IMG/VR virus record: IMGVR_UViG_2563366929_000009
Length of the DNA stretch: 16,405 bases
Reading direction: 5' to 3' (one strand)
From: a virus
Taxonomy: Duplodnaviria; Heunggongvirae; Uroviricota; Caudoviricetes
Shown: positions 1 through 15,679 of the stretch, piece after piece
Position numbering within the stretch: the first letter of the stretch is position 1
Layout of the letters: every line of letters begins with the position of its first letter
Notes under the pieces: generated by a model
Seen by the model: only the letters and a program-made list of their open reading frames with translations
Database searches by the model: none
What the model was told of the DNA's origin: nothing
Translations under genes and position numbers: made by a program

Positions 1-1131
1 TCAAATGACCAGTTTTTTCCATTCCTTACCGCGTGCGTCGTTGTAAATATCGGTCATTTTTTGATTCGAATGGCCCAGCAAAATTTTGGTATCAACCCCC
101 TGCTCTCTGAACAATCGCTCTGATAAAGATCTCTGCTCATGGAAAGAGGGTGGGGTGCCATTAGCACGCCAGTTGTAATCCACAGAATCCCGGGCTTTTT
201 TAAATGCAACGGTTAATGTTGCTGGCTTAACCATCCCGCCGCGCTTAGCTGTCCCTTTCGCGTGATGGTGGTGCAATAGCCACGGACTAAGAACGCAATC
301 GCGGCAGGATGACACCACATCATCTAGGGTGAGATTTAATTTATCGCAACGCAGAGCCAGAGGGATGGCAATCCGGGTTCCTGTTTTTTGCTGTTCGACA
401 TGAAGATAACCATCCCGGATATCCGAAAATTGCATTTTGCAAATATCTGAAAGGCGCTGGCCTGTCATCAGTGCCAGCAGCATACCGCGCTGTAAAAAGT
501 AACCATCCTTTTCCGCTGCGTTATAAATCATCATCCACTCATCAAAAGTCAGTCGCTGTCTTGATATCCGCACCTGCGGTTTTTTTGCCGATTCTGCAGG
601 GTTAAAGCCTGGCGGGACATCGCCCGTTTGCTGAGCTTCCCGGAAAACATCGATCAGTACTTTCCTGAAAATTTGTCCCATTCTGTTATGTCCTCTGGCC
701 TTGTACTCTTCCAGTACTGATACCACATCTTTTACGGTTATGGCATCTAACGGTCTGGTGCCAAAACGTTCATCAAATACCCTGAGAGGGGCCGCTTTCT
801 GTTTCAGCGTGTTGAGTTTGATCTCGCCGTTTTCATATCTTTCCTGTTGAATTTTTCTGTAATTATTCAGAAAAATGGTAACGGTTGATGAACCGCCGGT
901 GTCACTAATAATTTTCTCCTGCAGACTGAGCATTTGTTCCATTTGCTGCCGGGCAAGACGGCTGTTCGCTTCTGCTGCAATAGTTTCTGCCAGTTTCTGG
1001 TCAATACTGCCGAGACCGTGATTTTTGCCTGTTATGGGATGCCTGTAACGCCAGTAAACTTTGTTATTTCTTTTGTCAAAATATGGAGATAATCCCGGAA
1101 CATCGGTTTTATATTTTCGCGGGCGCGCCAT
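1..1131 (-). CDS. int: Phage tyrosine integrase (lambda Int-like)
   Basis: 376-aa minus-strand ORF. C-terminal segment (..ILLGHSNQKMTDIYNDARGKEW..) resembles the lambda Int catalytic C-terminus including the Tyr. Its start overlaps the end of the upstream excisionase by 23 nt, as in lambda xis-int. Stop codon is at window positions 1-3. Confidence 0.9.
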   Translation of the reverse strand: MARPRKYKTDVPGLSPYFDKRNNKVYWRYRHPITGKNHGLGSIDQKLAETIAAEANSRLARQQMEQMLSLQEKIISDTGGSSTVTIFLNNYRKIQQERYENGEIKLNTLKQKAAPLRVFDERFGTRPLDAITVKDVVSVLEEYKARGHNRMGQIFRKVLIDVFREAQQTGDVPPGFNPAESAKKPQVRISRQRLTFDEWMMIYNAAEKDGYFLQRGMLLALMTGQRLSDICKMQFSDIRDGYLHVEQQKTGTRIAIPLALRCDKLNLTLDDVVSSCRDCVLSPWLLHHHHAKGTAKRGGMVKPATLTVAFKKARDSVDYNWRANGTPPSFHEQRSLSERLFREQGVDTKILLGHSNQKMTDIYNDARGKEWKKLVI

Positions 1132-1357
1132 CTTCCAGTATCCTCTTCAAAGCAGGGTGATCTGTGGCGATCACCTCCGGCTTGTTTACCATTCCGACAA
1201 AGCGAGCTTGCGGATCCACTCGCCAGCGTCTTCCAACTTTTTTGGGGAGAGGAAATATCATTCCGGCTTTAGCGTATTTACTTAACGTACTCGGAGTAGG
1301 GACCGGTTCACTGAATTCCTCCTTTGTCCACTCAGTGAGCAGAATAAGTCTTGCCAT
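1109..1357 (-). CDS. xis: Excisionase (lambda Xis-like)
   Basis: 82-aa ORF immediately upstream of int and overlapping it. N-terminal LTEW and IFPLPKKVGRRWR motifs resemble lambda Xis (LTLQEW, IFPPPVKDGRE). No clear Shine-Dalgarno. Confidence 0.75.
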   Translation of the reverse strand: MARLILLTEWTKEEFSEPVPTPSTLSKYAKAGMIFPLPKKVGRRWRVDPQARFVGMVNKPEVIATDHPALKRILEDGAPAKI

Positions 1358-1421
1358 GAGCGTCGTTCGCTAATCATGGTCGCCGCCACTATAGCTGGTG
1401 GGCAACGACCGGGGTTGAACA

Positions 1422-3893
1422 TTAAAAATCAGCCTGATTTGGGATCAGTTTTTGCCAGATAGCTGAAACGTATTTTGCCTGGTAACGGGCGTCATCAAGT
1501 GCATTATGGCGCTCACCTTCGAATGGAATAGCCGTTCTGGCATCGAAGTCTATGGCTTTCCCCAGCTCAACGATTGTGCGTACATCGCGATCGTTGTAGT
1601 AACGCCACGGGCAGGGGATCCCCTGCCGTTCGTATGAACGGCGCAAAATCGTGTTGTCGAAGTTGGCTCCATTTCCCCAAACCTGAACAAAAAATTCACC
1701 GGAGTTTTCGTCGATAAATTCCCGCAATTGTAACAGTGCATCATCTAACGGGATTTCATCGGTCATAATGGCAGATTGCGCTTCGCGTGATTGCTTAAGC
1801 CACCATTTAATGGTGTCCCGATCAATGACTCCGCCAGCAGTTTCCAGATCGATAGTCTTACTAAATTCCGGTCCCATATCTCCGGTTTGCGGATCGAAAA
1901 ATATTGCACCTATTGAGATGATCGGGGCATCAGGATTTTTTCCCATGGTTTCAAGGTCGATCATTAGATGGTCACACGTCCTGCTGGTGGATGTGATTTC
2001 GTGATGACCGTTCACCTTAATTGGGTGATCTGCCGTCTCGCCAGTTTCATTATCGCTATTGTGATGCTGATTGCCGCCAGTGTTCTCCTTGTGTGGATGT
2101 TCAGCGCCTTCCATTTCCTCCGGATCATCTTCCTGAACTTCAACCTGATACTCTTCATCGAATGTTTCTTGGTATGTTGCGTCGCCCATCACCGCGCCAC
2201 AATCAGGACAGTTGCCGCCGCCGGTCTGACCGCAGGCGGTGCAGGCTTTTTCCACTTCCTGGTGCGCCACTGGTTCAGGCTGTTTCGTTTCTGGCTCGTT
2301 TTGTAACGCATTTGGACTGTTTTGTTCCGCTTTTTGGTAGTTCCGTTCCGATTCATGCTGGTTCTGGCTCACAGAATCGCGGGTCTGGATCCCCTTAATC
2401 CATTTCGGATCATTCGGGTCACTAATCCCTTCAACAAATTCACCACGTGATGCAGCAAGCAACTTATCGGCGTCAGGCTGGCTGATATTGGCTGCCTGCA
2501 TAATTTTGTTTACTTCGTCAGCGGTAACTTTTATCGGCTCTGGTTGTTCTGAATCTTCAGCGGTATCTACATTTTGCGGTAAGCCCGTGTATGTGCCATT
2601 TTTTCGGGCAAAATATTCTTCTTTTGTGATTTCAGTGGCGCCAGCAGCCAGTGCCTTATCCAGACCAGAAAGTTTGTTTGCGCGACCGTATTTTTCTCCG
2701 TCCTTATCTGCGAAGAGGAAATAGAACGGCCCCTCACGCTCTACAGATGGTTCAGCTTCCGGCGCGGTTTCATTTTTTGGGATATCAGATACCTCAGTTT
2801 CCACTGCATCAGTTTGTGTTTCTGATGACTGGAGAACATCAACAGTGCCCAGGTCTGTTTCTTCATTCTCAAACACGCCCTTTGTCGTCAGGTATTCGCA
2901 GATATATTTGTTCAGTGCTACGGGATCTTTGTGAATGTCGATCGGACGCTCACGGACAAGGCCAAAAATAGTTTGGCGGTCGTAGCGAAGGGCATCAGGC
3001 TGTTTGCGCATTGATGCCGAGATACGCTTCCAGTCTTCGCGGTCGTTGTCGATAACTTCTTTTTTTGCCCAGCGATGGATGCTGCCGTCAATGTTTCCGG
3101 CATCCACATCACCAGGCCAGAGAGCGTAGGCCAGTTCGTCATCCAGTGTTTTCCATGTCTGCTTGTATTCGCGATGAATGGCAGCAATGACCGGGCTGAT
3201 TTTTCCTGTTGAATTTTCAGTGTACTGTTGATTGGCTCTGGCGCGGGCGAGATCAACAACAGACGTGTATTTTCCGGTTTCCTTGCGTTCACCTTCGCGA
3301 CGTTTTTTCCAGATGCGCATCTCTGCCTGAATTTCGGGCCATTTAGCACCAGGAATACATTTATGCTTAACCCACCCAATGGCGTGCAACTTAAGCTCCG
3401 GATACATGGCGTTAACTTCTGGCATTTTCATCAACGCTTCAACGATATGTCCGTCGAATGTTGCCATGTCTTCCTGCAACAATTCCTGTGCGCTAATAAC
3501 CATATCAACGGTGATGTTTTCACATGTGTCGAACTTAACCATGACAGCGTTCTGTACTTCAGGGGCCAGCTTGTCAAAAGTGACGTTCATCGGATCGGAT
3601 TCAGTCTCGACCGGAACAAAGGAAGCAGACGCCTCATCCCAGCGGTTTTCCTGCATATATTCAGCATCCCAGGAATCGAGGGCAGGGCGGGGTATACCGG
3701 GTTTATCCTCGCAAACAAGAAATTTATAAGCGCAGTCCTGAGCAGCCGGATAATGTTCCAGGAATTGCCAGTGAAATTTTGCGCGGGCGCGACGTTCATC
3801 ACCGGCTTCAATGGCAGTGGCTACAGCGACGGCACCTTCTTCCTTTATTGCCTGTTCGTCCGGAATGGCGGCGCAAATAAAGACTTTACTCAT
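1422..3893 (-). CDS. Phage exonuclease, large multidomain protein with C-terminal DnaQ-like (DEDDh) 3'-5' exonuclease domain
   Basis: 823-aa ORF with GAGG Shine-Dalgarno 8 nt upstream of ATG. C-terminal ~180 aa carry DEDDh motifs: Exo I MIDLETMG, Exo II WGNGANFD, Exo III HNALDDARYQ. Central C-x2-C-x7-C-x2-C zinc-ribbon-like motif (CTACGQTGGGNCPDCG) and an acidic/His-rich low-complexity linker. Position matches the exo slot of the lambdoid recombination module. Confidence 0.8.
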   Translation of the reverse strand: MSKVFICAAIPDEQAIKEEGAVAVATAIEAGDERRARAKFHWQFLEHYPAAQDCAYKFLVCEDKPGIPRPALDSWDAEYMQENRWDEASASFVPVETESDPMNVTFDKLAPEVQNAVMVKFDTCENITVDMVISAQELLQEDMATFDGHIVEALMKMPEVNAMYPELKLHAIGWVKHKCIPGAKWPEIQAEMRIWKKRREGERKETGKYTSVVDLARARANQQYTENSTGKISPVIAAIHREYKQTWKTLDDELAYALWPGDVDAGNIDGSIHRWAKKEVIDNDREDWKRISASMRKQPDALRYDRQTIFGLVRERPIDIHKDPVALNKYICEYLTTKGVFENEETDLGTVDVLQSSETQTDAVETEVSDIPKNETAPEAEPSVEREGPFYFLFADKDGEKYGRANKLSGLDKALAAGATEITKEEYFARKNGTYTGLPQNVDTAEDSEQPEPIKVTADEVNKIMQAANISQPDADKLLAASRGEFVEGISDPNDPKWIKGIQTRDSVSQNQHESERNYQKAEQNSPNALQNEPETKQPEPVAHQEVEKACTACGQTGGGNCPDCGAVMGDATYQETFDEEYQVEVQEDDPEEMEGAEHPHKENTGGNQHHNSDNETGETADHPIKVNGHHEITSTSRTCDHLMIDLETMGKNPDAPIISIGAIFFDPQTGDMGPEFSKTIDLETAGGVIDRDTIKWWLKQSREAQSAIMTDEIPLDDALLQLREFIDENSGEFFVQVWGNGANFDNTILRRSYERQGIPCPWRYYNDRDVRTIVELGKAIDFDARTAIPFEGERHNALDDARYQAKYVSAIWQKLIPNQADF

Positions 3894-3993
3894 TTTGTTT
3901 TACCTCATTACAGATTTAAGGGTGAACAAATCCCTGCCGGTGATGCTGCCAACTTACTGATTTAGTGTATGATGGTGTTTTTGAGGTGCTCCA

Positions 3994-4269
3994 GTGGCTT
4001 CTGTTTCTATCAGCTGTCCCTCCTGTTCAGCTACTGACGGGGTGGTGCGTAACGGCAAAAGCACCGCCGGACATCAGCGCTATCTCTGCTCTCACTGCCG
4101 TAAAACATGGCAACTGCAGTTCACTTACACCGCTTCTCAACCCGGTACGTACCAGAAAATCATTGATATGGCCATGAATGGCGTTGGATGCCGGGCAACA
4201 GCCCGCATTATGGGCGTTGGCCTCAACACGATTTTACGTCACTTAAAAAACTCAGGCCGCAGTCGGTAA
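3994..4269 (+). CDS. insA: IS1 InsA (transposition inhibitor / N-terminal part of InsAB' transposase)
   Basis: 91-aa [27 protein letters not shown].. recognised as IS1 InsA. Confidence 0.9.
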
Positions 4270-4691
4270 CCTCGCGCATACAGCCGGGCAGTGATGTGAT
4301 TGTCTGCGCTGAAATGGACGAACAGTGGGGCTATGTCGGGGCTAAATCGCGCCAGCGCTGGCTGTTTTACGCGTATGACAGGCTCCGGAAGACGGTTGTT
4401 GCGCACGTATTCGGTGAACGCACTATGGCGACGCTGGGGCGTCTTATGAGCCTGCTGTCACCCTTTGACGTGGTGATATGGATGACGGATGGCTGGCCGC
4501 TGTATGAATCCCGCCTGAAGGGAAAGCTGCACGTAATCAGCAAGCGATATACGCAGCGAATTGAGCGGCATAACCTGAATCTGAGGCAGCACCTGGCACG
4601 GCTGGGACGGAAGTCGCTGTCGTTCTCAAAATCGGTGGAGCTGCATGACAAAGTCATCGGGCATTATCTGAACATAAAACACTATCAATAA
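4188..4691 (+). CDS. insB: IS1 InsB' reading frame (expressed as InsAB' transposase by -1 frameshift)
   Basis: -1 frame relative to insA and overlapping its 3' end; A6C slippery motif at 4243..4251. Sequence ..[30 protein letters not shown].. is typical IS1 InsB. Confidence 0.88.
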
Positions 4692-4784
4692 GTTGGAGTC
4701 ATTACCGAGAAAGATGATGTCTACATAGCCAATTGTATAGAAAAAGGTAAGACTGAATTTAAAGTAAGCAAAGATATTGCTGCG

Positions 4785-5159
4785 TTGCCTTTCAAGGGTG
4801 AACCCATCGAGAAAATTAGGGGAGAGCTAATCAGGTCAATCAAGGAACACTTGATCAGTGCAAGCTGGCATAGCACTAAAAAGGTAATCGACCGCTATGA
4901 AGCTACATTCGATATAAAAGTACAAAAAGACTGTCCGATAGAAGCTATTGAATTGGCAACCCTCAATCGAAATCACTTAGTGCATCGTGGTGGAAAGGAT
5001 AAAGAAGGGAACCTCGTAGTGATTACAGACCAGGATCTTGAAACGCTGATTGAAAATGCATCGAACCTGGCAATTATGCTCTACAACAGTTTAAATGTAG
5101 CAACGAATAAAACCACCATTTTGCAACCAGATGACAAACCGTTCATTCATGAATTTTAA
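4785..5159 (+). CDS. Hypothetical protein, probably a 5'-truncated remnant (frame open back to the IS1 junction at 4707)
   Basis: ORF-track start is TTG with no Shine-Dalgarno. The same frame stays open upstream to the insB stop at 4689..4691, with no ATG or GTG in between. AT-rich codon composition unlike the flanking prophage genes. No recognisable family motif. Confidence 0.45.
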   Translation: MPFKGEPIEKIRGELIRSIKEHLISASWHSTKKVIDRYEATFDIKVQKDCPIEAIELATLNRNHLVHRGGKDKEGNLVVITDQDLETLIENASNLAIMLYNSLNVATNKTTILQPDDKPFIHEF

Positions 5160-5174
5160 TAGCGCAGGTCATAC

Positions 5175-6176
5175 ATGGATATTCGCACACGAAAGACAAA
5201 ATTTTTAGAGTCGTTAGATTCAACTGAAGTGATACGCAAAGCAGTAAGTCTCGCTATAGATTGCATTATTGATAATCATAATAGTAATGAAGATACCCCC
5301 TTAGTTATTACCAGCTATGATGATCTCTGTAGAATCCAGGTGCTAAATTATGTACAGGAGTTTTGCGAAGCTGCATTCCCTGATATGGATGAATATTACT
5401 TTAGTCCTAACATACTTCGCATCAACGGCAAGACTAGTGAAGAAGCTTGTATTAACTTAATTAAACTCTTAAGAAGTACAAAAGGCATGCTATTCTGGTC
5501 CGATGCCCCATCGTGGTTCGCTAGCCTCCCCGACGGATTATTCCATGTTGTTAACATTGATCAAAAAATCGTTACTCGCGGCCTTAATAAGAAAAACTCT
5601 AAGCCGACAATAATCAATAAAGATTACAGTGTAGATACACTACTATCAGAGCTATTTTTGAATGGCGCACACATGGAGCAACCCAACGTACACAACGTTT
5701 CTGAGGGAAACATGAAGTTCTATGATGAATGCCATGCTGGATTAATCAGACCAATACCCGCTCCAATAGGCGCGTCATACGATGAAGAGATCACAATTAA
5801 TTCTCCAGATTGGCAAAAGCTCGCGTGTGTAGCTTTACGCCGCTATCAGTCGAAGGAATGTCATGACGGAATGCAATGGGATACAACCGATCATGGTTGG
5901 ACTGATGTAATCGCGTATCCATTCGTCGAAGAAATACAATCAATGGATAATAGTGGTTATCGACAATGTTTAGTTGGGCTGGTCACAATAAACAATTCAA
6001 ATGCAAATTCTCCGTACCTATCTACCGTTTGGATACATCCATTTTATCGCAGGAGAGGGTTATTAAGTAAGTTATGGCCAAAATTACAAGAGTTATATGG
6101 AAGTAACTTCGAAATTGAGCGACCTAATGAAAATATGAAAGCATTTCTGAAAAGTGCGAAACACGCAGATTACTAA
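5175..6176 (+). CDS. Hypothetical 333-aa protein with a C-terminal GNAT-acetyltransferase-like motif
   Basis: ATG with weak AGGT Shine-Dalgarno 5 nt upstream. Visibly AT-rich. C-terminal segment LVGLVTINN..YLSTVWIHPFYRRRGLLSKLWPKL resembles GNAT motif A (beta4-alpha3, V.P..RR.G). The N-terminal ~230 aa are unrecognised. Confidence 0.7.
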   Translation: MDIRTRKTKFLESLDSTEVIRKAVSLAIDCIIDNHNSNEDTPLVITSYDDLCRIQVLNYVQEFCEAAFPDMDEYYFSPNILRINGKTSEEACINLIKLLRSTKGMLFWSDAPSWFASLPDGLFHVVNIDQKIVTRGLNKKNSKPTIINKDYSVDTLLSELFLNGAHMEQPNVHNVSEGNMKFYDECHAGLIRPIPAPIGASYDEEITINSPDWQKLACVALRRYQSKECHDGMQWDTTDHGWTDVIAYPFVEEIQSMDNSGYRQCLVGLVTINNSNANSPYLSTVWIHPFYRRRGLLSKLWPKLQELYGSNFEIERPNENMKAFLKSAKHADY

Positions 6177-6492
6177 TTTATGAATCAGTCTGTGGAGTTA
6201 GGGTTGGTGTCAACAAGTAGGGTAAGAGCCTCAACGTGATGCTATGCCGACCTGCTCCCTGAGAATTCACACAGAAGGCTGCTAGCAATGTCTGCAGATC
6301 GCTCAAAGCGGACTAGAAGGTTAGCTTGCGTCGGACTTGGCGTATTTAAAGAAGTGCTGGTGGTGACTGGTTGTTGTGTTCCATTTCTACAGAACAAAAT
6401 CACAGAAACTATACCCAATAGTTATATTGAATCAATGATGAGACAGCCTCATATTTATCAGAACTGGTGTACGTCCAATACAGGAGGTTGTC

Positions 6493-6582
6493 GTGCTGGT
6501 TCTCAAATGTGCGCTAGCTATTGCGGCTGTAATGGCAATTTATTGTCTTGCTGTTGTTCTTATGGATCGCCTTTCTGATTGA
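6493..6582 (+). CDS. Candidate small hydrophobic peptide (29 aa: MLVLKCALAIAAVMAIYCLAVVLMDRLSD if GTG is read as Met)
   Basis: Near-consensus Shine-Dalgarno AGGAGG at 6482..6487, 5 nt before GTG at 6493. Single predicted transmembrane helix plus short charged tail. Possible -35 TTGAAT / -10 CATATT about 40-60 nt upstream. Below the ORF-track size cutoff. Confidence 0.3.
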   Translation: MLVLKCALAIAAVMAIYCLAVVLMDRLSD

Positions 6583-6793
6583 TTTTATATTGGCGAGGTG
6601 ACGGGAGTTAAGTAGAATTGCTGCGGGTGCTTGAGGCTATCTGCCTCAGGCATGAACACCAAAGGCAGATAGAGAAAAGCCCCAGTTAATATTACGCGTC
6701 CTGCAAGACGCTTAACATTAATCTGAGGCTCAATCTATGAACGGCAAATCTAGGTTAGCCTCTTACGTGCCGAAAGGCAAGGAGAAGCAGGCT

Positions 6794-6949
6794 ATGAAGC
6801 AGCAAAAGGCGATGTTAATCGCCCTGATCGTCATCTGTTTAACCGTCATAGTGACGGCACTGGTAACGAGGAAAGACCTCTGCGAGGTACGAATCCGAAC
6901 CGGCCAGACGGAGGTCGCTGTCTTCACAGTTTACGAACCTGAGGAGTAA
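6794..6949 (+). CDS. hokD: Hok/Gef-family type I toxin (HokD/RelF-like, 51 aa)
   Basis: MKQQKAMLIALIVICLTVIVTALVTRKDLCEVRIRTGQTEVAVFTVYEPEE is near-identical to my recollection of HokD. GGAGA Shine-Dalgarno 9 nt upstream. The in-frame upstream extension from 6737 (ORF-track 70-aa ORF) may be a mok-like leader ORF. Hairpin GGCGAGGG-agaaat-CCCTCGCC follows the stop, as at hok mRNA 3' ends. Confidence 0.85.
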   Translation: MKQQKAMLIALIVICLTVIVTALVTRKDLCEVRIRTGQTEVAVFTVYEPEE

Positions 6950-6987
6950 GAGACCCGGCGAGGGAGAAATCCCTCGCCACCTCTGAT

Positions 6988-7395
6988 GTGTCAGGCATCC
7001 TCAACGCACCCGCACGTAACCCGCTTCGGCGGGTTTTGTTTTTTCCTGGCATTCTGGTTTACAATTCGCACGCCAGCCTGAACAACTGGCACCTGCTGCG
7101 CCAGCAGAGACAACCGATGGCGCACGATACCAAATTACACAATTCTGATGATTCTGCCGTCTTTGCCAGCAGGCACGGGCGGCGTTCCCGCACTTTCAAA
7201 TCTGACTGGTTCCAGCATCCCCCATGCACTGAAGAACAGGCCGAGTGGCTAATTCAGTGCTACCGCAGACACGGATACGAGATTAAGAAAGCCCTCAGCC
7301 TCGATTATCGTCACTGGATAATCTCCGTCAGGCTTCCTTACTCCGAACGATCACCGCGTCCGTCCCGCACATTCCAGCAACGCATCTGGAGGTAA
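6988..7395 (+). CDS. Hypothetical protein (start uncertain: GTG 6988 or ATG 7117); occupies the rem-like slot between hok and the DUF968 gene
   Basis: Open frame ending at TAA 7393..7395, one nucleotide before the downstream gene; that gene's GGAGG Shine-Dalgarno lies inside its 3' end. GC-rich composition like neighbouring prophage genes. No family recognised. Confidence 0.4.
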   Translation: MSGILNAPARNPLRRVLFFPGILVYNSHASLNNWHLLRQQRQPMAHDTKLHNSDDSAVFASRHGRRSRTFKSDWFQHPPCTEEQAEWLIQCYRRHGYEIKKALSLDYRHWIISVRLPYSERSPRPSRTFQQRIWR

Positions 7396-7396
7396 C

Positions 7397-8443
7397 GTGC
7401 GAGTATTACTTCGACCTGTTCTGGTACCGGAACTCGGGCTGGTGATCGTTAAGCCGGGCCGTGAATCCATGCCGGTATTCCACAATACCCGGGTACTGGT
7501 GGAGCCGGAACCGAAAAGCATGCGTAATCTGCCGTCCGGGGTTGTTCCTGCCGTTCGCCAGCCGCTAGTGGAAGACAAAACATTGCTGCCGTTTTTCAGT
7601 AACGCACGGGTGATTCGTGCTGCTGGTGGTGCTGGTGCATTGTCTGACTGGCTGTTGCGCCATATTAAATCCTGCCAGTGGCCACACGGCGATTATCATC
7701 ACAGCGAAACCGTCATTCACCGTTATGGTACCGGCGCAATGGTGTTGTGCTGGCACTGCGACAACCAGCTGCGTGACCAGACATCCGAATCACTCGAGCA
7801 ACTTGCTCATCAAAACCTGTCAGCATGGATGATTGACGTCATACTCCATGCAATGAATGGCTCGCAGGAACGGGAATTATCGCTGGCTGAATTATCCTGG
7901 TGGGCGGTCCGCAATCAGGTGGCGGACGCGCTACCGGAAGCGGTATTACGTCGTTCGCTGGGGTTGCGTGCGGAAAAAATCCGCTCAATGTACCGTGAAA
8001 GCGACATCGTACCGGGAGAGCAGACCGCCACCAGCATACTGAAGCAGCGCACAAAAAATCTTGCGCCGCTGCCTCACGCCCACCAGCAAAACCCGCCACA
8101 GGAAGAGACGGTGGTCAGCATTGCCGTTGATCCTGAGTCTCCGGAATCTTTCATGAAACGACCTAAACGTCGCCGCTGGGTTAACGAGAAATACACACGC
8201 TGGGTGAAGACACAGCCGTGTGCGTGTTGTGGTAAGCCAGCCGACGATCCCCATCACCTGATTGGTCATGGTCAGGGCGGAATGGGGACAAAATCTCACG
8301 ATATTTTCACGCTACCGCTGTGTCGGGAGCATCACAACGAGCTTCATGCGGATCCTCTGGCGTTCGAAGAAAAGCATGGTTCTCAGGTTGATTTAATTTT
8401 TCGTTTTCTTGATCACGCCTTTGCAACTGGCGTGCTTGGGTAA
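7397..8443 (+). CDS. DUF968 / YdfU-like lambdoid nin-region protein with C-terminal Cys/His (HNH-like) cluster
   Basis: 348-aa ORF, GTG start with GGAGG Shine-Dalgarno. C-terminus CACCGKPADDPHHLIGHGQGGMGTKSHDIFTLPLCREHHNELH. Sits immediately upstream of rusA and Q, as ydfU does in Qin-type prophages. Confidence 0.75.
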   Translation: MRVLLRPVLVPELGLVIVKPGRESMPVFHNTRVLVEPEPKSMRNLPSGVVPAVRQPLVEDKTLLPFFSNARVIRAAGGAGALSDWLLRHIKSCQWPHGDYHHSETVIHRYGTGAMVLCWHCDNQLRDQTSESLEQLAHQNLSAWMIDVILHAMNGSQERELSLAELSWWAVRNQVADALPEAVLRRSLGLRAEKIRSMYRESDIVPGEQTATSILKQRTKNLAPLPHAHQQNPPQEETVVSIAVDPESPESFMKRPKRRRWVNEKYTRWVKTQPCACCGKPADDPHHLIGHGQGGMGTKSHDIFTLPLCREHHNELHADPLAFEEKHGSQVDLIFRFLDHAFATGVLG

Positions 8444-8455
8444 AAGAGGTGACTG

Positions 8456-8830
8456 ATGCTCATAGATTTGGTTTTACCTTACCCGCCGACGGTGAACACT
8501 TACTGGCGACGCCGTGGCAGCACATATTTTATCTCGGAGGAGGGAAAGCGTTATCGCCGGGCTGTGGCGCTTATTGTTCGCCAGCAGCGGCTGAAATTAA
8601 GCCTGTCCGGAAGGCTGGCGATAAAGGTGATTGCAGAGCCACCGGATAAGCGTCGTCGCGACCTGGACAATATCCTGAAAGCACCGCTGGATGCGCTGAC
8701 GCATGCGGGAGTGTTAATGGACGATGAGCAGTTTGATGAAATCAATATCGTTCGTGGTCAGCCAGTATCTGGTGGACGTATGGGGGTGAAGATTTACCCC
8801 ATAATGCATGAAGAGCAGGTCAAAAAATGA
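8456..8830 (+). CDS. rusA: RusA Holliday-junction resolvase
   Basis: 124 aa. Motifs ..PPTVNTYWRR.. and ..PDKRRRDLDNILKAPLDALTHAGVLMDDEQ.. match the RusA family (catalytic Asp cluster). AGGTGA Shine-Dalgarno. Confidence 0.9.
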   Translation: MLIDLVLPYPPTVNTYWRRRGSTYFISEEGKRYRRAVALIVRQQRLKLSLSGRLAIKVIAEPPDKRRRDLDNILKAPLDALTHAGVLMDDEQFDEINIVRGQPVSGGRMGVKIYPIMHEEQVKK

Positions 8831-9648
8831 AACTGGAAGATTTACCGAAATACTACTCCCCAAAATCCCCTGGCCTGACCGATGCATCGGCCTCAACGTC
8901 AAAAGATGCGCTGAGTATCACTGATGTGATGGCCGCGCAGGGCATGACACAGAATCGGGCTGAGATGGGGTTTTCTGCGTTCCTGGGGAAAATGGGCATC
9001 AGTATGAATGACAGGGCGCGGGCAACAGAATTACTGGCAGATTATGCACTCAGTCGGTGCGATCGTGTGGCGGCGTTGAGAAAACTTCCGGCAGAAATAA
9101 AACCGGTAGTGATGCGCATTATGGCTTCGTATGCGTTTGAAGATTATGCCCGTAGCGCGGCGAGCAAAAAACAGTGCCCTTGCTGTCACGGAAAAAAATT
9201 TATTGAAAGCGAGGTTTTTACAAACAAGATCCAGTATCCGGATGGTAAGCCACCAGTGTGGGCAAAGTGCACAAAAGGCGTGTATCCGTCTTACTGGGAA
9301 GAATGGAAAAAAGTCAGGGAGGTGGTAAAAGTTGCCTGTCCGGAGTGTGGCGGAAAGGGTGAGGTTTCCACCGCCTGTAAGGATTGCCGTGGGCGTGGTG
9401 TCGCCATTCATCGTGAAGAGTCGGTAAAACGTGGTATGCCTGTTATCAGAGATTGCCAGCGTTGTGGTGGTCGTGGCTGTGAAAGGCTGCCATCAACGGA
9501 GGCATTTAATGCCATATGCAAAGTGACGAGTGCTATCACGCTTGATACGTGGAAAAAATCAGTGAAACGCTTTTACGATACGTTGGTGGTTCGGTTTGAC
9601 ATTGAAGAGGCATGGGCGGAGCGGCAGTTAAAGAGGGTAACGCGATAG
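8827..9648 (+). CDS. Q: Late-gene antitermination protein Q-like
   Basis: 273 aa. Start overlaps the rusA stop (ATGA). Lies directly upstream of a pR'-like promoter. Carries four CxxCxGxG-type Cys repeats (CPCCHGKK, CPECGGKG, CKDCRGRG, CQRCGGRG). Confidence 0.8.
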   Translation: MKLEDLPKYYSPKSPGLTDASASTSKDALSITDVMAAQGMTQNRAEMGFSAFLGKMGISMNDRARATELLADYALSRCDRVAALRKLPAEIKPVVMRIMASYAFEDYARSAASKKQCPCCHGKKFIESEVFTNKIQYPDGKPPVWAKCTKGVYPSYWEEWKKVREVVKVACPECGGKGEVSTACKDCRGRGVAIHREESVKRGMPVIRDCQRCGGRGCERLPSTEAFNAICKVTSAITLDTWKKSVKRFYDTLVVRFDIEEAWAERQLKRVTR

Positions 9649-9653
9649 TGTTG

Positions 9654-9693
9654 TTGATTTTTCCCGAATCTGTGGTAAATTTGCTCTAACGAT
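9654..9693 (+). promoter_or_regulatory. Late promoter pR' with promoter-proximal pause element (qut region)
   Basis: -35 TTGATT (9654..9659), 16-nt spacer, -10 TAAATT (9676..9681). Downstream TTTGCTCTAACGATGGG closely matches the lambda pR' initial transcribed region (TAAATTTGACTCAACGATGGG), including the AACGAT pause-inducing element. Confidence 0.7.
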
Positions 9694-9730
9694 GGGCGTT
9701 TTATGCCTGACGTTAGAAGATTTTTTACAC

Positions 9731-9752
9731 CCCGCCGCCTGGCGGGTTTTTT
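9731..9752 (+). terminator. Intrinsic terminator tR'-like
   Basis: Stem CCCGCC / GGCGGG with loop GCCT followed by a T6 run, about 45 nt downstream of the pR' start region. Confidence 0.75.
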
Positions 9753-9872
9753 ATGACTGAAATCGCGTCAGTACAGTAAACGCGCTGGTGGCGGTGAATA
9801 CCTGTCTTTCAGCTTGCTGGCTTTTTCGACAAGAGTTATTGGTGTGTCACGTTAACCGGAAAAGGAAAAGAC

Positions 9873-10070
9873 ATGCTAAAACAGCAGGATATGACAGAAA
9901 CCGCCAGAGTGGTGTTTAATGAATTAAGCGTTACCGACCCGGCGACAGTCGGGGAGATAGCGCAGAATACTTACCTTTCACGCGAACGCTGCCAGTTAAT
10001 ACTGACTCAGCTGGTTATGGCGGGTCTGGCAGACTATCAGTTCGGTTGTTACAGACGCCTTCCGCAGTGA
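9873..10070 (+). CDS. Small hypothetical protein (65 aa) with possible helix-turn-helix
   Basis: AAGGAA Shine-Dalgarno before ATG. Segment ATVGEIAQNTYLSRERCQLILTQLVMAGL looks HTH-like. First ORF after tR' in the late operon. Confidence 0.5.
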   Translation: MLKQQDMTETARVVFNELSVTDPATVGEIAQNTYLSRERCQLILTQLVMAGLADYQFGCYRRLPQ

Positions 10071-10097
10071 AGGCTTTTTTATTTGTGGTAAATGGGC

Positions 10098-10128
10098 GGC
10101 TGGTGGGTGTTAGGGGCACCCACCAGCC
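10098..10128. repeat. Perfect 12-bp inverted repeat (GGCTGGTGGGTG / CACCCACCAGCC) with 7-nt spacer
   Basis: Seen directly in the sequence between the small HTH-like ORF and the methyltransferase. Not followed by a T-run, so more likely an operator or RNA structure than a terminator. Confidence 0.5.
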
Positions 10129-10220
10129 ATCTGCTCATGCGTCCGGATCACAAGCAAACCTCAGGCCCACTGCTTTGCGCAAAAGCAGAATGAGCCTATC
10201 AGAGACAGGCTTAATGATCC

Positions 10221-11270
10221 ATGCTTAATACTGTAAAAATATCCAGTTGTGAGTTAATCAACGCCGACTGCCTGGAATTTATCCGGTCGTTACCCGAAAA
10301 TTCTGTTGACCTGATAGTCACGGACCCGCCGTACTTTAAAGTGAAGCCTGAGGGCTGGGATAACCAGTGGAAGGGCGACGATGATTACCTGAAGTGGCTG
10401 GACCAGTGTCTGGCGCAGTTCTGGCGGGTGCTGAAACCTGCCGGAAGTCTTTACCTGTTCTGTGGTCATCGCCTGGCATCTGATATCGAAATCATGATGC
10501 GTGAACGCTTCAGTGTGCTGAACCATATTATCTGGGCGAAGCCGTCCGGACGCTGGAACGGATGCAACAAGGAAAGGCTGCGGGCGTATTTCCCCGCCAC
10601 AGAGCGCATTCTGTTCGCGGAACATTATCAGGGGCCGTATCGTCCGAAAGATGCCGGGTATGCGGCGAAGGGCAGTGCACTGAAACAGCATGTGATGGCC
10701 CCGCTGATTTCTTACTTTCGTGATGCGCGCGCGGCCCTGGGGATAACGGCAAAACAGATTGCAGATGCCACAGGAAAGAAAAACATGGTGTCGCACTGGT
10801 TCAGTGCCAGTCAGTGGCAGCTACCGAATGAAAGCGATTATCTGAAATTACAGGCGCTGTTTGCCCGGGTGGCAGAAGAGAAGCATCGGCGTGGTGAACT
10901 GGAAAAGCTCCACCACCAGCTGGTGGATACGTATACCTCACTGAACCGGCAGTATGCGGAGCTGCTGAGTGAATATAAACATCTGCGGCGGTATTTTGGC
11001 GTGACGGTGCAGGTGCCGTATACCGATGTGTGGACGCATAAACCGGTGCAGTTCTATCCCGGGAAACATCCGTGCGAAAAACCGGCAGAAATGCTGCAGC
11101 AGATAATCAGCGCAAGTAGCCGTCCTGGTGATCTGGTTGCGGATTTTTTCATGGGGTCGGGTTCAACGGTAAAAGCGGCGATGGCACTGGGGCGTCGTGC
11201 GATTGGTGTTGAGCTGGAGACCGGACGTTTTGAGCAGACAGTCAGGGAAGTTCAGGATTTAATCGTTTGA
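10221..11270 (+). CDS. Orphan DNA amino-methyltransferase, beta-class (N6-adenine or N4-cytosine)
   Basis: 349 aa. Catalytic DPPY motif near the N-terminus (SVDLIVTDPPYF) and AdoMet-binding FxGxG (FFMGSGST) near the C-terminus. Motif IV before motif I indicates beta-class. No adjacent restriction-endonuclease gene. Confidence 0.88.
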   Translation: MLNTVKISSCELINADCLEFIRSLPENSVDLIVTDPPYFKVKPEGWDNQWKGDDDYLKWLDQCLAQFWRVLKPAGSLYLFCGHRLASDIEIMMRERFSVLNHIIWAKPSGRWNGCNKERLRAYFPATERILFAEHYQGPYRPKDAGYAAKGSALKQHVMAPLISYFRDARAALGITAKQIADATGKKNMVSHWFSASQWQLPNESDYLKLQALFARVAEEKHRRGELEKLHHQLVDTYTSLNRQYAELLSEYKHLRRYFGVTVQVPYTDVWTHKPVQFYPGKHPCEKPAEMLQQIISASSRPGDLVADFFMGSGSTVKAAMALGRRAIGVELETGRFEQTVREVQDLIV

Positions 11271-11319
11271 AACGGATGAGATTGCAGAATTAATTACGCA
11301 CCATTATTATTCTGCTCCC

Positions 11320-11395
11320 GGCCCTTTAGCTCAGTGGTGAGAGCGAGCGACTCATAATCGCCAGGTCGCTGGTTCAAATCCAGCAAGGGCCACCA
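11320..11395 (+). tRNA. ileZ: tRNA with CAT anticodon, most likely tRNA-Ile2 (lysidine-type, ileZ-like); tRNA-Met not excluded
   Basis: 76 nt with encoded CCA. Acceptor stem GGCCCTT/AAGGGCC, D-arm AGCTCAGTGGTGAGAGC, anticodon loop CTCATAA, T-arm GGTTCAAATCC. Resembles my recollection of E. coli ileX. Confidence 0.85.
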
Positions 11396-11402
11396 TCACA
11401 TA

Positions 11403-11479
11403 CCGCCATTAGCTCATCAGGAAAGAGCGCCAGCCTTCGAAGCTGGTTGCGCGGAGTTCGGGTCCCCGAAGGCGGTCCA
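11403..11479 (+). tRNA. tRNA-like sequence with UCG (Arg) anticodon; degenerate, possibly a pseudogene
   Basis: Cloverleaf can be drawn (anticodon loop CTTCGAA) but with A.A mismatch in the acceptor stem, a mismatch in the T-stem and an atypical T-loop TTCGGGT (G at the conserved A58 position). Confidence 0.45.
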
Positions 11480-11492
11480 TTATCTGTATCCT

Positions 11493-11569
11493 GCGTTGTT
11501 AGCTCAGCCGGACAGAGCAATTGCCTTCTAAGCAATCGGTCACTGGTTCGAATCCAGTACAACGCGCCA
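11493..11569 (+). tRNA. tRNA-Arg (anticodon UCU)
   Basis: 77 nt. Acceptor GCGTTGT/ACAACGC, discriminator G and CCA. Anticodon stem ATTGC/GCAAT with loop CTTCTAA. T-arm GGTTCGAATCC. Confidence 0.85.
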
Positions 11570-11584
11570 CACTTATTTTCCCTG

Positions 11585-11608
11585 GCTCGCTTTTGCGGGC
11601 TTTTTTTT
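11585..11608 (+). terminator. Intrinsic terminator after the tRNA cluster
   Basis: GCTCGC-tttt-GCGGGC hairpin (one G.U pair) followed by a T8 run. Confidence 0.6.
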
Positions 11609-11614
11609 AAATGT

Positions 11615-11828
11615 CTCACAATTCAGGCGGTTGACTGTTGTCTGGTTTGCGGGGAGTTTGTTAAAAGAAACTGGCATGGTGAATCCCCCTGTGCGGAGGG
11701 GCAATCAGCGAGTAGGTATATGGGATAATCGCGGATTCAGGTGCTGGTACTGAATTCACCGGGAGGCACCCGGCACCATGCAATGGCACATAGCGCCACT
11801 CTCCAGCCCCTCTCCGGAGGGGCTTTTC
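11615..11828 (+). repeat. Structured unit A: promoter-like element, hairpin, SD-ATG and terminator modules
   Basis: Shares conserved blocks with unit B: CTCACAATTCAG, GTTGAC, TTTGTTAAAA, GCATGGTGAATCCCCCTG.GCGGAGGGGC, GGTATA, TCACCGGGAGGCACCCGGCACCATG, AGCCCCTCTCCGGAGGGG+T-run. Blocks are separated by divergent spacers. Tiny ORFs at 11778..11903 (41 aa) and coupled 11903..12004 (33 aa). Confidence 0.6.
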
Positions 11829-12018
11829 TGTGCCGGATACATCACAGTTTCTGGAACCTTAGGTACTACAGTATCAGTCAGGGTGCTATATTTTCAGATG
11901 TGATGAAAGCCTGTCAGCAGGCAGGGCGTATCGGAAATGACCCAGTAGAGAAAACGTTGACTCAGATACCGGTGCTGAGTTACCGGGAAACCGGCATCAC
12001 ATGACCGCTATCCTTCCA

Positions 12019-12045
12019 GGCCCATCCGCTCCGGTGGGCCTTTTT
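12019..12045 (+). terminator. Intrinsic terminator
   Basis: GGCCCA ... TGGGCC stem with 10-nt loop followed by T5. Confidence 0.55.
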
Positions 12046-12082
12046 ACTGCAGAAAACAGGTTCCCCGTTAAATGCTATGTTG

Positions 12083-12316
12083 CTCACAATTCAGTAAGTT
12101 GACAGTTGCCTGTCAGACTGGGCATTTGTTAAAAAAATTTCGCATGGTGAATCCCCCTGAGCGGAGGGGCGACTGGTGACGGTATAATCTCTGATTATCA
12201 AAACGAGAATGACGCGGGTTTAGTGGCACCGGGCTGAACTCACCGGGAGGCACCCGGCACCATGTGCATGATGATACAGATACGCGGCTTTAGCCCCTCT
12301 CCGGAGGGGTTTTCTT
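12083..12316 (+). repeat. Structured unit B (paralogue of unit A)
   Basis: Same conserved module set as unit A. Includes consensus -35 TTGACA (12099..12104) and consensus -10 TATAAT (12183..12188). Terminator CCCCTC-tccg-GAGGGG + TTTT at 12294..12316. Confidence 0.6.
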
Positions 12317-12322
12317 GTGGGC

Positions 12323-12351
12323 AAAAAAAGCCCGCGCTGGGAGACGCGGGC
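12323..12351 (-). terminator. Minus-strand intrinsic terminator, back-to-back with the unit B terminator
   Basis: A7 run followed by GCCCGCG-ctgggaga-CGCGGGC. On the minus strand this reads as stem-loop plus U7. Confidence 0.5.
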
Positions 12352-12544
12352 GGCAAGGAATAAACAATAAAACGTGAAGTAATATTTCAGCTGGCGAATA
12401 ATACCCCATAGTAATCACTCTGCGCAACTGCGCGGTCTTTTTCGAATTGCGGGCTGTCGTCTCTCTTCTGCCATTGTCCTGTAACTTCCGGACTTCAGCC
12501 CGCTCCTTATTTTACTCACAATATTATCCCGGCCGGGAGGATTC

Positions 12545-12772
12545 ATGGCATTTAAACACTATGACGTGGTCAGGGCGGTATCGCCGTCAGACCTTGCGAA
12601 ACGACTGACACAAAAACTGAAGGAGGGCTGGCAGCCGTTTGGTAGTCCGGTGGCCATAACCCCTTATACCCTGATGCAGGCGATTGCAGCAGAAGGTGAT
12701 GTGGTGGTCAGTGGTGCAACTGAGCCGGATTGGTACTACGTCATCGTACTGGCCCGGCATTCCAGGCCATAA
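12545..12772 (+). CDS. Hypothetical small protein (75 aa)
   Basis: Good GGGAGG Shine-Dalgarno 4 nt before ATG. Upstream region repeats short blocks of units A and B (CTCACAAT, CCGGGAGG). No family recognised. Confidence 0.6.
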   Translation: MAFKHYDVVRAVSPSDLAKRLTQKLKEGWQPFGSPVAITPYTLMQAIAAEGDVVVSGATEPDWYYVIVLARHSRP

Positions 12773-12976
12773 AAGACAGTCTGGCAGTGGGACTAAATGC
12801 ACTGACGCTGATGGATATTACCAAAAATGTAACGTATGGCGTTGAGATAGAAAGTCTGGCGCTGGAGATAAATGCACCGGCATCATCATAAAAAGTGAGC
12901 CAGTCAAATGGAAGGTATCGTTAAACTCACCGGTAGTGTCAGTGGGTCGTCTGAGACGCTTGCATGAGTTATCAGA

Positions 12977-13005
12977 GCCATCAGTAGTTAACTGGTGGCT
13001 TTTTT
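12977..13005 (+). terminator. Intrinsic terminator immediately upstream of the holin gene
   Basis: 9-bp stem GCCATCAGT / ACTGGTGGC (one G.U), loop AGTTA, followed by T6. Confidence 0.7.
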
Positions 13006-13040
13006 ATTGTTTTCAGCTTCCGGATAACGGGAGACGGGGT

Positions 13041-13256
13041 ATGGACCAGATGGAAAAAATCACAACAGGTGTGTCATACACCACGTCAGCGGTGGGAACG
13101 GGCTACTGGTTCCTGCAGTTGCTGGACAGGGTTTCCCCGTCTCAGTGGGCGGCAATAGGCGTGCTGGGGAGTCTGCTGTTTGGGCTGCTGACATATCTGA
13201 CTAACCTGTATTTCAAAATCAGAGAGGACCGTCGTAAGGCGGCACGGGGAGAGTAA
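13041..13256 (+). CDS. S: Class II holin (phage 21 S21-type pinholin), dual-start motif
   Basis: [71 protein letters not shown] is very similar to my recollection of S21. Met1 and Met4 give an antiholin/holin dual start. GGGAGA Shine-Dalgarno. The ORF-track upstream extension from 12936 is not supported. Confidence 0.9.
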
Positions 13257-13260
13257 TTCA

Positions 13261-13605
13261 ATGACTCAAAACTATGAACTGATTGTGAAAGGGATCCGCA
13301 ATTTTGAGAATAAAGTTACGGTAACTTTAGCATTACAGGACAAAGAACGCTTTGACGGTGAAATTTTTGACCTGGACATCTCGCTGGACCGTGTTGAAGG
13401 TGCTGCGCTGGAGTTTTATGAGGCAGCGGCCAGAAGGAGCATCAGACAGGTCTTCCTGGATGTCGCTGCCGGGTTATGTGAAGGGGATGAGCAGTCGCCG
13501 GAAAAGCGCCCCGTAATTTTAGAGGCGCAGAATGTATGGATAACCTACAAAGGAAAGCTACCGGGAAGGATTACTGGTTCCCTGAAGACTCCGCCGAAAT
13601 GGTAG
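13261..13605 (+). CDS. Hypothetical protein in the holin-endolysin interval (ydfR-like position)
   Basis: 114-aa ORF with GGGAGAG Shine-Dalgarno, starting 5 nt after the holin stop. Family not recognised from sequence. Confidence 0.65.
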   Translation: MTQNYELIVKGIRNFENKVTVTLALQDKERFDGEIFDLDISLDRVEGAALEFYEAAARRSIRQVFLDVAAGLCEGDEQSPEKRPVILEAQNVWITYKGKLPGRITGSLKTPPKW

Positions 13606-13843
13606 TTTTGCCAGCATAATTTTCTTCCAGCAATGCCGCCAGCCACTTGAAAGAATTTTGTTGTTCCTGGGACCATTTGGGGTTGCGTGATTCAAAATGA
13701 ATGGATGCCAGCGTTGGCAGCATTTGCTCCCTGGGAATTGATAAGGCCAGATGTGAAAATGCAACAGTGAGGGCATTTACATCATCCCGAAGCCTGGAAA
13801 TGCAGTCGAGCAACTCCTGTAGAGAAATGGTGCTATTGTCCAT
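13571..13843 (-). CDS. Candidate antisense-oriented gene (90 aa) inside the lysis cassette
   Basis: Minus-strand ORF with good AGAGGA Shine-Dalgarno 6 nt before ATG. Its 3' end overlaps the 3' end of the 13261..13605 ORF by 35 bp (convergent). No family recognised. Confidence 0.4.
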   Translation of the reverse strand: MDNSTISLQELLDCISRLRDDVNALTVAFSHLALSIPREQMLPTLASIHFESRNPKWSQEQQNSFKWLAALLEENYAGKTTISAESSGNQ

Positions 13844-13948
13844 AAATAATCCTCTTGATTGTCTTTACCTTTTCCCCGCCTGATTCAACAGGCCGGGACA
13901 GATAAACATATCCAGGGTTCAGAAACCGATAAATCCTGATAAATATCC

Positions 13949-14482
13949 ATGAACGCAAAAATCAAATACGGCCTGTCAGCTGCAGTTCTGGCGCTGATTG
14001 GAGCAGGCGCATCAGCTCCTCAGATACTTGACCAGTTTCTGGATGAAAAAGAGGGTAACCACACTACGGCATACCGCGATGGTTCCGGCAACTGGACCAT
14101 CTGTCGGGGGGCCACGATGGTGGATGGAAAACCCGTTTTTCCCGGTATGAAACTGTCGAAGGAAAAATGCGACCAGGTCAACGCCATTGAGCGTGATAAG
14201 GCGCTGGCATGGGTGGAGAAAAACATCAAAGTGCCATTGAGCGAACCCCAGAAAGCGGGGATCGCGTCATTCTGTCCGTACAACATTGGTCCCGGTAAGT
14301 GTTTCCCGTCGACGTTTTATAAACGAATTAATGCAGGTGATCGCAGGGGAGCGTGTGAGGCGATTCGCTGGTGGATTAAGGACGGTGGCAGAGACTGCCG
14401 TATTCGTTCAAACAACTGCTACGGTCAGGTATCCCGTCGTGACCAGGAGAGCGCGCTGGCGTGCTGGGGTATCGACAGATAA
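13949..14482 (+). CDS. R: SAR endolysin (phage 21 R21-type lysozyme)
   Basis: 177 aa. N-terminal signal-anchor-release segment (LSAAVLALIGAGASAP) and lysozyme catalytic region (..DEKEGNHTTAYRDGSGNWTICRG..). Confidence 0.9.
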   Translation: MNAKIKYGLSAAVLALIGAGASAPQILDQFLDEKEGNHTTAYRDGSGNWTICRGATMVDGKPVFPGMKLSKEKCDQVNAIERDKALAWVEKNIKVPLSEPQKAGIASFCPYNIGPGKCFPSTFYKRINAGDRRGACEAIRWWIKDGGRDCRIRSNNCYGQVSRRDQESALACWGIDR

Positions 14483-14576
14483 GCAGAATATTTTGCTGAA
14501 AAATAAGGCATGGCCACGCGGGCGGATAACATGAAATCCTGCGAAGTGGCGAAACGTAAGTGAATAAAAGTAAAAA

Positions 14577-14606
14577 CCCCGTTTGTTGGCACCAAGCGGG
14601 GTTTTG
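14577..14606 (+). terminator. Intrinsic terminator between endolysin and Rz
   Basis: 9-bp stem CCCCGTTTG / CAAGCGGGG (one G.U), 7-nt loop, then TTTT. Preceded by AAAA, so it may act bidirectionally. Confidence 0.65.
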
Positions 14607-14680
14607 TGTTTCCTGACTCCGGAAAAGTCAAAGGAGAAAGTGTGTTTGATTTTAGCAAACTGATTCGGGAGATTCGAGTG

Positions 14681-14779
14681 ATGGCTGAAAAATTATCCAC
14701 CTGGAAGTTCATTCTTATCTGGCTGGTGTTTGTGATTATGGCCTCTGGTTATTTCATCGGTCAGATACGCTGGTGGTGA
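14681..14779 (+). CDS. Candidate small membrane peptide (32 aa; alternative GTG start at 14642 gives 45 aa)
   Basis: [32 protein letters not shown] has a single hydrophobic helix. AGGAG at 14633 and GGGAG at 14667 could each serve as Shine-Dalgarno. Stop TGA is 1 nt before the Rz ATG. Below the ORF-track size cutoff. Confidence 0.35.
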
Positions 14780-14780
14780 A

Positions 14781-15640: not shown

Positions 15641-15679
15641 TGGATATTTGTAATCCATCTGAAAACCCCTGCTGTAGCA

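Follow-up and report, generated by a model that had tools for sequence, protein, structure and literature searches.

The window, by which we mean the whole stretch of 16,405 nucleotides analysed here, was identified by megablast against 5,426 complete E. coli genomes as a lambdoid prophage integrated beside ompW, as in UTI89-like ExPEC strains. Besides UTI89 and NU14, several APEC O2:K1:H4 strains carry this prophage, as do about 100 others. Its backbone is represented by an integrase, an excisionase, the Q antiterminator and lysis genes, and terminase genes follow in a sister genome (L002). An identical integrase gene adjoins ompW in UTI89 and in FDAARGOS_1301. The features around the insertion sequence are listed below, where L001 denotes the UTI89 locus.

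1..1131, minus strand: lambda-type integrase of 376 aa (Pfam Arm-DNA-bind_1 and Phage_integrase), at the prophage end beside ompW
1109..1357, minus strand: excisionase of 82 aa (Pfam Exc; RefSeq annotation)
1422..3893, minus strand: phage exonuclease (exo) of 823 aa, with a C-terminal Rv2179c-like 3'-5' exonuclease domain (Pfam PF16473, E=1.6e-67; phrog_2082 'exonuclease')
3894-3938, no strand: 45-bp remnant of the exo-ydfD spacer, ending in ATCCCTGCC and colinear with UTI89 L001 4894-4938
3939-4706, plus strand: IS1, with IRL at 3939-3961 and IRR at 4684-4706
3994-4269: insA, frame open, 91-aa InsA
4188-4691: insB', frame open, 167-aa InsB'
4245-4251: A6C frameshift motif AAAAAAC, intact
4707..5159, plus strand: 3' remnant of a 320-aa AT-rich ORF, 150 codons plus stop (phrog_17908), colinear with UTI89 L001 10445-10897
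5175..6176, plus strand: intact partner ORF of 333 aa (phrog_16994)

The insertion sequence at 3939-4706 is a complete IS1 of 768 bp, present as one intact copy. Its ends are canonical (left GGTGATGCTGCCAACTTACTGAT..., right ...AAGTTGGAGTCATTACC), and its imperfect terminal inverted repeats (23/24 nt) agree with the ~23-bp repeats that, together with a length of 768 bp, define the element; the arms 3938-3961 and 4684-4707 are 79% complementary. The insA and insB' frames and the A6C motif for the -1 frameshift were all found. The element is 99% identical to IS1A copies of other genomes, and RefSeq labels the identical copy in the sister genome L002 'IS1A family transposase, programmed frameshift'. 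A promoter-like site on the plus strand (3946-3973) lies inside IRL, the expected place of IS1's own inward promoter. The element is IS1A-like except for a patch at 4295-4310 (IS1 nt 357-372: T357, G360, T363 and T372), which agrees with divergent types of IS1, the NT1N31 copy among them, and suggests a short tract of gene conversion between IS1 variants.

Downstream of IS1, the truncated ORF and its partner form a two-gene AT-rich cassette (37-42% GC; the full first gene is L001 9935-10897) between the replication module and hok/sok. RefSeq flags the 3' remnant as 'incomplete, missing N-terminus', and the first cassette gene was inactivated by the IS1 deletion described below. PADLOC gave no significant match for the cassette ORFs, and assignment to a defence system was set aside, as the Pfam matches were sub-threshold only (HEPN_RES_NTD1 in the 320-aa ORF, GNAT in the 333-aa ORF); the cassette may be an accessory or defence pair. 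Further along, the window carries three tRNA genes downstream of a methyltransferase gene (Ile, Arg and Arg in the RefSeq annotation of identical genes), two STnc100 sRNA matches and a hok/sok locus; the tRNA, STnc100 and hok/sok features (window 11320-11566, 11645-11835, 12113-12322 and 6625-6799) are all common to UTI89.

The far end of the window (15680-16405) is the left end of an IS4 element, whose transposase ORF starts at about 15766. Homology to four sister genomes ends at 15679, so that this is a second, lineage-private IS insertion, placed between the Rz lysis gene and a DUF1398 gene; its junction at 15680 was absent from the complete E. coli genomes. In other genomes the IS4 matches begin some 19 nt earlier (about 15661) and overlap prophage sequence, and a conserved IS4 target could lie behind this overlap.

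IS1 duplicates 8-9 bp of its target (PMC12428005). The 9-mers that flank the window copy, ATCCCTGCC on the left (3930-3938) and GAGAAAGAT on the right (4707-4715), are unrelated, and no direct repeat of 8 or 9 bp surrounds the element under any boundary shift, so the usual duplication at both ends is missing from this copy. This casts no doubt on its identity as IS1, since the duplication marks a fresh simple insertion rather than the element, and a deletion explains its absence. As a positive control, a simple IS1 insertion in strain 94EC, 95 bp further along, has a perfect 9-bp duplication, AACTTTATC. The left end of the window IS1 is separated by 45 nt (3894-3938) from the exonuclease ATG, and the right end adjoins what remains of an ORF, 320 aa long in UTI89, of which the C-terminal 150 codons are left. 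An earlier note on this DNA, made from the sequence alone, had described the unrelated flanking 9-mers, the left end 45 bp upstream of the exonuclease start and the truncated ORF at the right end, and was accurate to the base.

Comparison with an intact relative, which the note had proposed, mapped the deleted interval to the base against UTI89. Homology ends at window 3938 (L001 4938) and restarts at window 4707 (L001 10445), which places the right deletion breakpoint at 4706/4707. UTI89 L001 4939-10444, exactly 5,506 bp, is thus replaced by the 768-bp IS1 with base-exact breakpoints, and the 14.9 kb of flanks differ between the window and UTI89 by 3 SNPs. In most carriers the megablast match was split into two pieces over 20,417 bp, and the span difference of 4,738 bp is consistent with a loss of 5,506 bp and a gain of the 768-bp IS1. 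An undeleted allele therefore exists (UTI89 and about 100 genomes), and the missing DNA starts at the IS end, as in an adjacent deletion. The DNA that UTI89 retains and the window has lost contains the following features.

L001 4986-5177: ydfD
L001 5174-5362: dicB
L001 5537-5588: DicF sRNA (Rfam, 76.7 bits)
L001 5928-6464: ydfC, ydfB and ydfA
L001 6757-7395, minus strand: CI-type (LexA/CI-like) repressor of 212 aa, with HTH and S24 peptidase
L001 7487-7729: cro (P22_Cro)
L001 7713-8138: ydaT (phrog 'CII-like')
L001 8210-9280: replication-initiation protein of 356 aa (phrog_3729)
L001 9321-9743: DUF977
L001 9935-10444: first 170 codons of the 320-aa AT-rich ORF

RefSeq annotates only the last 112 aa of the UTI89 repressor ('LexA family protein'; NC_007946 1394327-1394965, minus strand). 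Its start there is probably too far downstream, the ORF being 212 aa long with an N-terminal HTH and a C-terminal S24 peptidase.

The proposal that an IS1-associated deletion had removed immunity and replication functions was thus borne out by the 5,506 bp that UTI89 keeps, with repressor, cro, ydaT, initiator and dicBF. The note had also counted bet and gam among the genes missing between exo and the nin genes. The loss of repressor, cro and replication genes stands, as all of them lie in the UTI89 interval, but that of bet/gam does not: the intact relative has neither gene, and the exonuclease is Rv2179c-like, not lambda Exo or RecE. Nor does IS1 sit where the native leftward promoter of exo would be, as had been supposed, because ydfD-dicB-DicF-ydfCBA stand between exo and the promoter region in the intact phage. 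There, exo is distal in a long leftward operon, ydfA-ydfB-ydfC-DicF-dicB-ydfD-exo, and gene order places the promoter region of this operon beside the repressor gene, within the deleted DNA and about 1.6-1.8 kb upstream. Promoter-like consensus sites occur on the minus strand between ydfA and the repressor gene (L001 6672-6644) and on the plus strand upstream of cro (L001 7429-7458); both are expected in a lambdoid layout, and they serve as positional hints only, the number of such sites in the deleted DNA not being above shuffle expectation.

We then surveyed the distribution of the two alleles. The IS1 form was present in 4 of the 108 genomes with this prophage and the undeleted form in about 104. 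The four (CP070111, CP142930, CP196270 and OZ546967) match colinearly over window 1-15679, the OZ546967 match being in two pieces with an IS3-family insertion inside that interval. An extra IS3-family transposase is annotated in the matched prophage interval of OZ546967, CM176498 and CP126928, a further sign of ongoing IS-driven prophage decay. Full-length matches of 100% identity to the left-junction query and to the right-junction query came only from the same 4 of 5,426 complete E. coli genomes, and 0 of the 5,426 had one junction but not the other. The survey shows the IS1 allele to be derived and rare.

Two observations had been named in advance as speaking against an IS1-mediated loss, namely the same junction without IS1 and a target duplication that emerges on sequence correction. 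A synthetic query for the exo-to-cassette junction without IS1 matched 0 complete genomes, and the junctions were identical in four assemblies. The second result bears equally on the idea of an assembly or sequence artefact, in which IS1 was collapsed into the wrong place or a duplication was hidden. Repeat assembly is difficult in general, and this is all that would favour it; however, four independent complete genomes of different origin agree at 100% identity over both junctions, and alignment to UTI89 gives breakpoints that are sharp to the base. We give this explanation practically no weight.

An intact IS that was kept, a deletion that starts at the IS end and the lack of a duplication together constitute the anatomy of a classical IS1-associated deletion. 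Where such duplications are missing, the usual cause is either an adjacent deletion or recombination between IS copies; adjacent deletions that grew in steps have been followed through time (PMC11708052). In clinical E. coli, deletions of 11-66 kb have been found immediately adjacent to IS1 (PMC10569738). The allele probably arose by IS1 adjacent deletion, that is, from a single resident IS1 followed by intramolecular transposition, which left a defective prophage. One IS1 would have entered the short exo-ydfD spacer of a UTI89-type prophage at ompW, most likely at the target ATCCCTGCC. This exo-side primary insertion would be recognizable by AACAAATCCCTGCC joined to GGTGATGCTGCC together with GTCATTACC joined to ATCCCTGCCATTGCTGG on a UTI89-type allele. 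In a later intramolecular transposition, the right end of IS1 would have attacked a site 5.5 kb away inside the 320-aa accessory ORF, and the intervening 5,506 bp would have been lost with the second copy of the target duplication while IS1 stayed. The outcome would be one IS1 with unrelated flanks.

An intermediate with IS1, both ATCCCTGCC copies and the 5.5 kb still present was not found among the 5,426 complete genomes. An exact-pattern scan of metagenome contigs gave 0 hits for either junction type and is uninformative, as short-read contigs break at IS copies. As no intermediate was found, the two-step order is one that we infer. The same gap would be accounted for if an incoming IS1 had joined its ends to two targets 5.5 kb apart, with insertion and deletion at once and no prior resident IS1; no intermediate of any kind turned up in complete genomes or metagenome contigs, and insertion with rearrangement and without duplication has been proposed for IS5 and IS481 (PMC11708052). 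However, missing intermediates are expected anyway for an allele as rare as four genomes, every traceable IS-plus-deletion event in the long-term evolution experiment had the resident IS first (PMC11708052), and no IS1 example of such a one-step event was documented in the literature examined. We consider this course very improbable.

Recombination between two IS1 copies would likewise leave a single IS1 whose flanks are unrelated; the note had named it beside adjacent deletion without choosing, and the data fit either course. It supposes two insertions in direct orientation, each with its own duplication, and then homologous recombination that excised the 5.5 kb and one IS1. Beside adjacent deletion, it is the cause usually named when a duplication is missing (PMC11708052), and the carrier genomes hold several IS1 copies, the four records having 4-17 places each that match the IS1-containing junction query. 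However, it needs two insertions within 5.5 kb plus recombination, and neither the single nor the double insertion occurred in any genome surveyed. Nor is the window IS1 a chimera with a single switch, the patch at nt 357-372 and one SNP making two switch points; this argument is weak, as identical parents leave no trace. A chimeric IS1 was also considered as a sign of such recombination and dropped as uninformative, given a short internal divergent patch and no single crossover. We regard inter-IS1 recombination as rather unlikely, and retain adjacent deletion from a single resident IS1 as the probable mechanism.

The earlier note had suggested a search for an IS1 copy flanked by the complementary half-site, and this search was positive in another genome, E8 (CP104526). 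A synthetic reciprocal query (cassette flank, IS1 and ydfD-side flank) gave no full match, and in none of its hits did IS1 adjoin the upstream portion of the cassette ORF; the same query revealed in E8 an IS1 in the same orientation with the right-end junction ...GTCATTACC joined to ATCCCTGCCATTGCTGGCAT. The half-site reads IS1 followed by ATCCCTGCC-ATTGCTGG (also read as IS1 followed by ATCCCTGCC-ATTGCTGGCAT). It complements the left junction of the window, from which it is offset by exactly 9 bp, the IS1 stagger. The other side of the E8 element lies inside exo, which has lost its N-terminus, and thus marks a leftward deletion. The E8 prophage is a different one from the window's, located at the Qin site beside rspB with a diverged spacer allele, and its IS1 differs from the window IS1 at 6 positions. 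Given the different prophage allele and IS1 variant, E8 and the window seem to reflect two separate uses of a single 9-bp target and not shared ancestry, although gene conversion among IS1 copies could blur this picture. On these alignments ATCCCTGCC appears to be a reused IS1 target.

A hairpin, TGCCA-TTGC-TGGCA (L001 4935-4948, that is window 3935-3938 and deleted bases), overlaps the target ATCCCTGCC and is followed by a T-rich tail on the minus strand. The motif CTGCCA is common to the hairpin/ATCCCTGCC region and nt 8-13 of the IS1 left end. The hairpin may be a weak ydfD/exo terminator, a feature that attracts IS1, or a chance occurrence.

Parallel cases were found through the left-junction query. 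In these genomes IS1 lies 25-190 bp from exo, and the rightward deletions vary from a loss of 32 bp to one that passes the end of the prophage. By design the query picked up copies in the orientation of the window IS1, and, as the search was seeded with the exo flank, it accounts in part for the exo-side anchor that they share.

3045 (L004), ompW site: IS1 25 bp from the exo ATG; deleted up to tail gene J
VTB97584v (L007), prophage with Qin-type genes: left junction as in 3045, different IS1 variant; deletion to Rz
NT1N31 (L005), Qin site: IS1 66 bp from the exo ATG; deletion into the replication gene
33-6 (L006), Qin site: IS1 in ydfD; 32-bp deletion
23CRST007 (L008), Qin site: IS1 in dicB; deletion from dicB to flxA
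NT1F10 group (L009), Qin site: IS1 beyond dicB; deletion past the prophage end into ydfJ
94EC (L003), tRNA-Ser: IS1 in ydfD; simple insertion with the perfect 9-bp duplication given above

Opposite-orientation IS1 copies within about 80-550 bp of exo were found in 3 further genomes. Strains 3045 (L004 7080/7081) and VTB97584v (L007 5080/5081) have the identical left junction ...CATTACAGATTTA joined to GGTGATG, 25 bp from exo; their IS1 variants and right junctions differ, which makes this a second exactly reused target in the exo-ydfD spacer. What recurs is an IS1 insertion in the exo-ydfD-dicB zone, followed by deletions that vary in length.

These cases bear on the direction of the event. 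IS1 could have come first into the 320-aa cassette ORF, with the duplication GAGAAAGAT, and its left end could then have attacked ATCCCTGCC to give a leftward deletion; such a cassette-first intermediate would show ...ATTAATTCTATAGAGAAAGAT joined to GGTGATG and GTCATTACC joined to GAGAAAGATGATG. The product is symmetrical, so the window alone fits either direction, and E8, which marks ATCCCTGCC as a favoured IS1 target, fits a secondary attack at that site equally well. IS1 tends to prefer AT-rich DNA, and the cassette is AT-rich (37-42% GC). However, IS1 was seen in or within about 600 bp of the cassette position only in the four deletion carriers, whereas primary insertions or near-insertions were repeatedly seen in the exo-ydfD-dicB zone. 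We consider a cassette-first event unlikely and infer that the adjacent deletion probably ran rightward from the exo side.

It is conceivable, although we are doubtful, that the ~70-bp exo-ydfD spacer of Qin/UTI89-type lambdoid prophages is a true site-specific IS1 hotspot. Two exact targets have each been struck at least 2 times by different IS1 variants, ATCCCTGCC in the window and E8 and ...CAGATTTA in 3045 and VTB97584v, and further IS1 hits lie within +/-25 bp of the exact targets and in ydfD/dicB. The paired hits at each exact target look independent and would lie in prophages at different attachment sites.

The repressor/cro switch with the early-promoter region and the replication initiator all lay inside the deleted interval, and the region of divergent early promoters and operators was lost with it. 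No equivalent of the switch or of the initiator was found between IS1 and rusA/Q in the window. The exonuclease gene, formerly the last of the leftward early operon, is now separated from its promoter, and since the switch region is deleted, exo, xis and int are left without early leftward transcription. Q and the late genes would likewise lack rightward early transcription. A crude scan detected no minus-strand sigma-70-like site between IS1 and exo; a hybrid outward IS1 promoter driving exo was considered and is unsupported, there being no promoter-like site in the spacer. The toxic dicB/ydfD genes and DicF were removed in the same event. The remaining prophage keeps int, xis, exo, Q and lysis genes, with terminase in the sister genomes. 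It is predicted to be non-inducible and non-replicating, with no late-gene expression from its own promoters, and to be inherited stably as a defective element; stable inheritance fits its presence in four genomes from different sources.

The event is of an already known kind, an ordinary textbook insertion-sequence deletion. Deletions of the gal region studied by Reif & Saedler (1975) are reportedly the classical IS1 adjacent deletions. The window shares with classical adjacent (replicative) deletions the retained IS, a deletion that begins at the IS end, one ancestral and one new flank, and no duplication. Nothing mechanistic separates them; the window is a natural prophage allele whereas the classical cases are selected laboratory events, and the intermediate was not recovered here. 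The deletions of the nfsB region in clinical E. coli are likewise large, immediately adjacent to a resident IS1 and found in natural isolates (PMC10569738), but they span 11-66 kb, were selected by nitrofurantoin and removed host genes, whereas the window deletion is 5.5 kb long, lies within a prophage and has no known selection. In the stepwise IS150 deletions of the long-term evolution experiment, the IS again stands without target duplication at the deletion junction; insertion came first and deletion later, sometimes extended stepwise, and the range of deletion sizes beside exo resembles such a series (PMC11708052). The IS family is another one, and the intermediates were observed there, whereas they are inferred for the window.

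The cryptic prophage Qin of E. coli K-12 has a dicA/dicC immunity region and a ydfABC-dicF-dicB-ydfD operon (PMC10448788, PMC6832061). It shows the same order of repressor, cro-like gene and ydfA-ydfB-ydfC-DicF-dicB-ydfD, and several of the parallel IS1 cases sit in prophages at the Qin site beside rspB. It differs in that the window prophage lies at ompW and that the intact relative of the window encodes a 212-aa LexA/CI-type repressor with S24 peptidase in place of DicA. Moreover, K-12 Qin keeps the dicBF module, whereas the window has lost the whole module.

These results explain the missing immunity and replication module of this prophage and date its loss to one event common to a small sublineage, with little significance beyond annotation. 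As a natural instance of an IS1-linked deletion the window is clean: its breakpoints are base-exact, and a second genome carries the complementary half-site. The wider point, if real, is the reuse of IS1 targets upstream of exo in unrelated prophages, which would bear on how this prophage family is repeatedly inactivated. Were the spacer a true hotspot, IS1 would be a recurrent seeder of deletions that ground the whole family, and selection against the toxic dicB/ydfD operon might reinforce the process.
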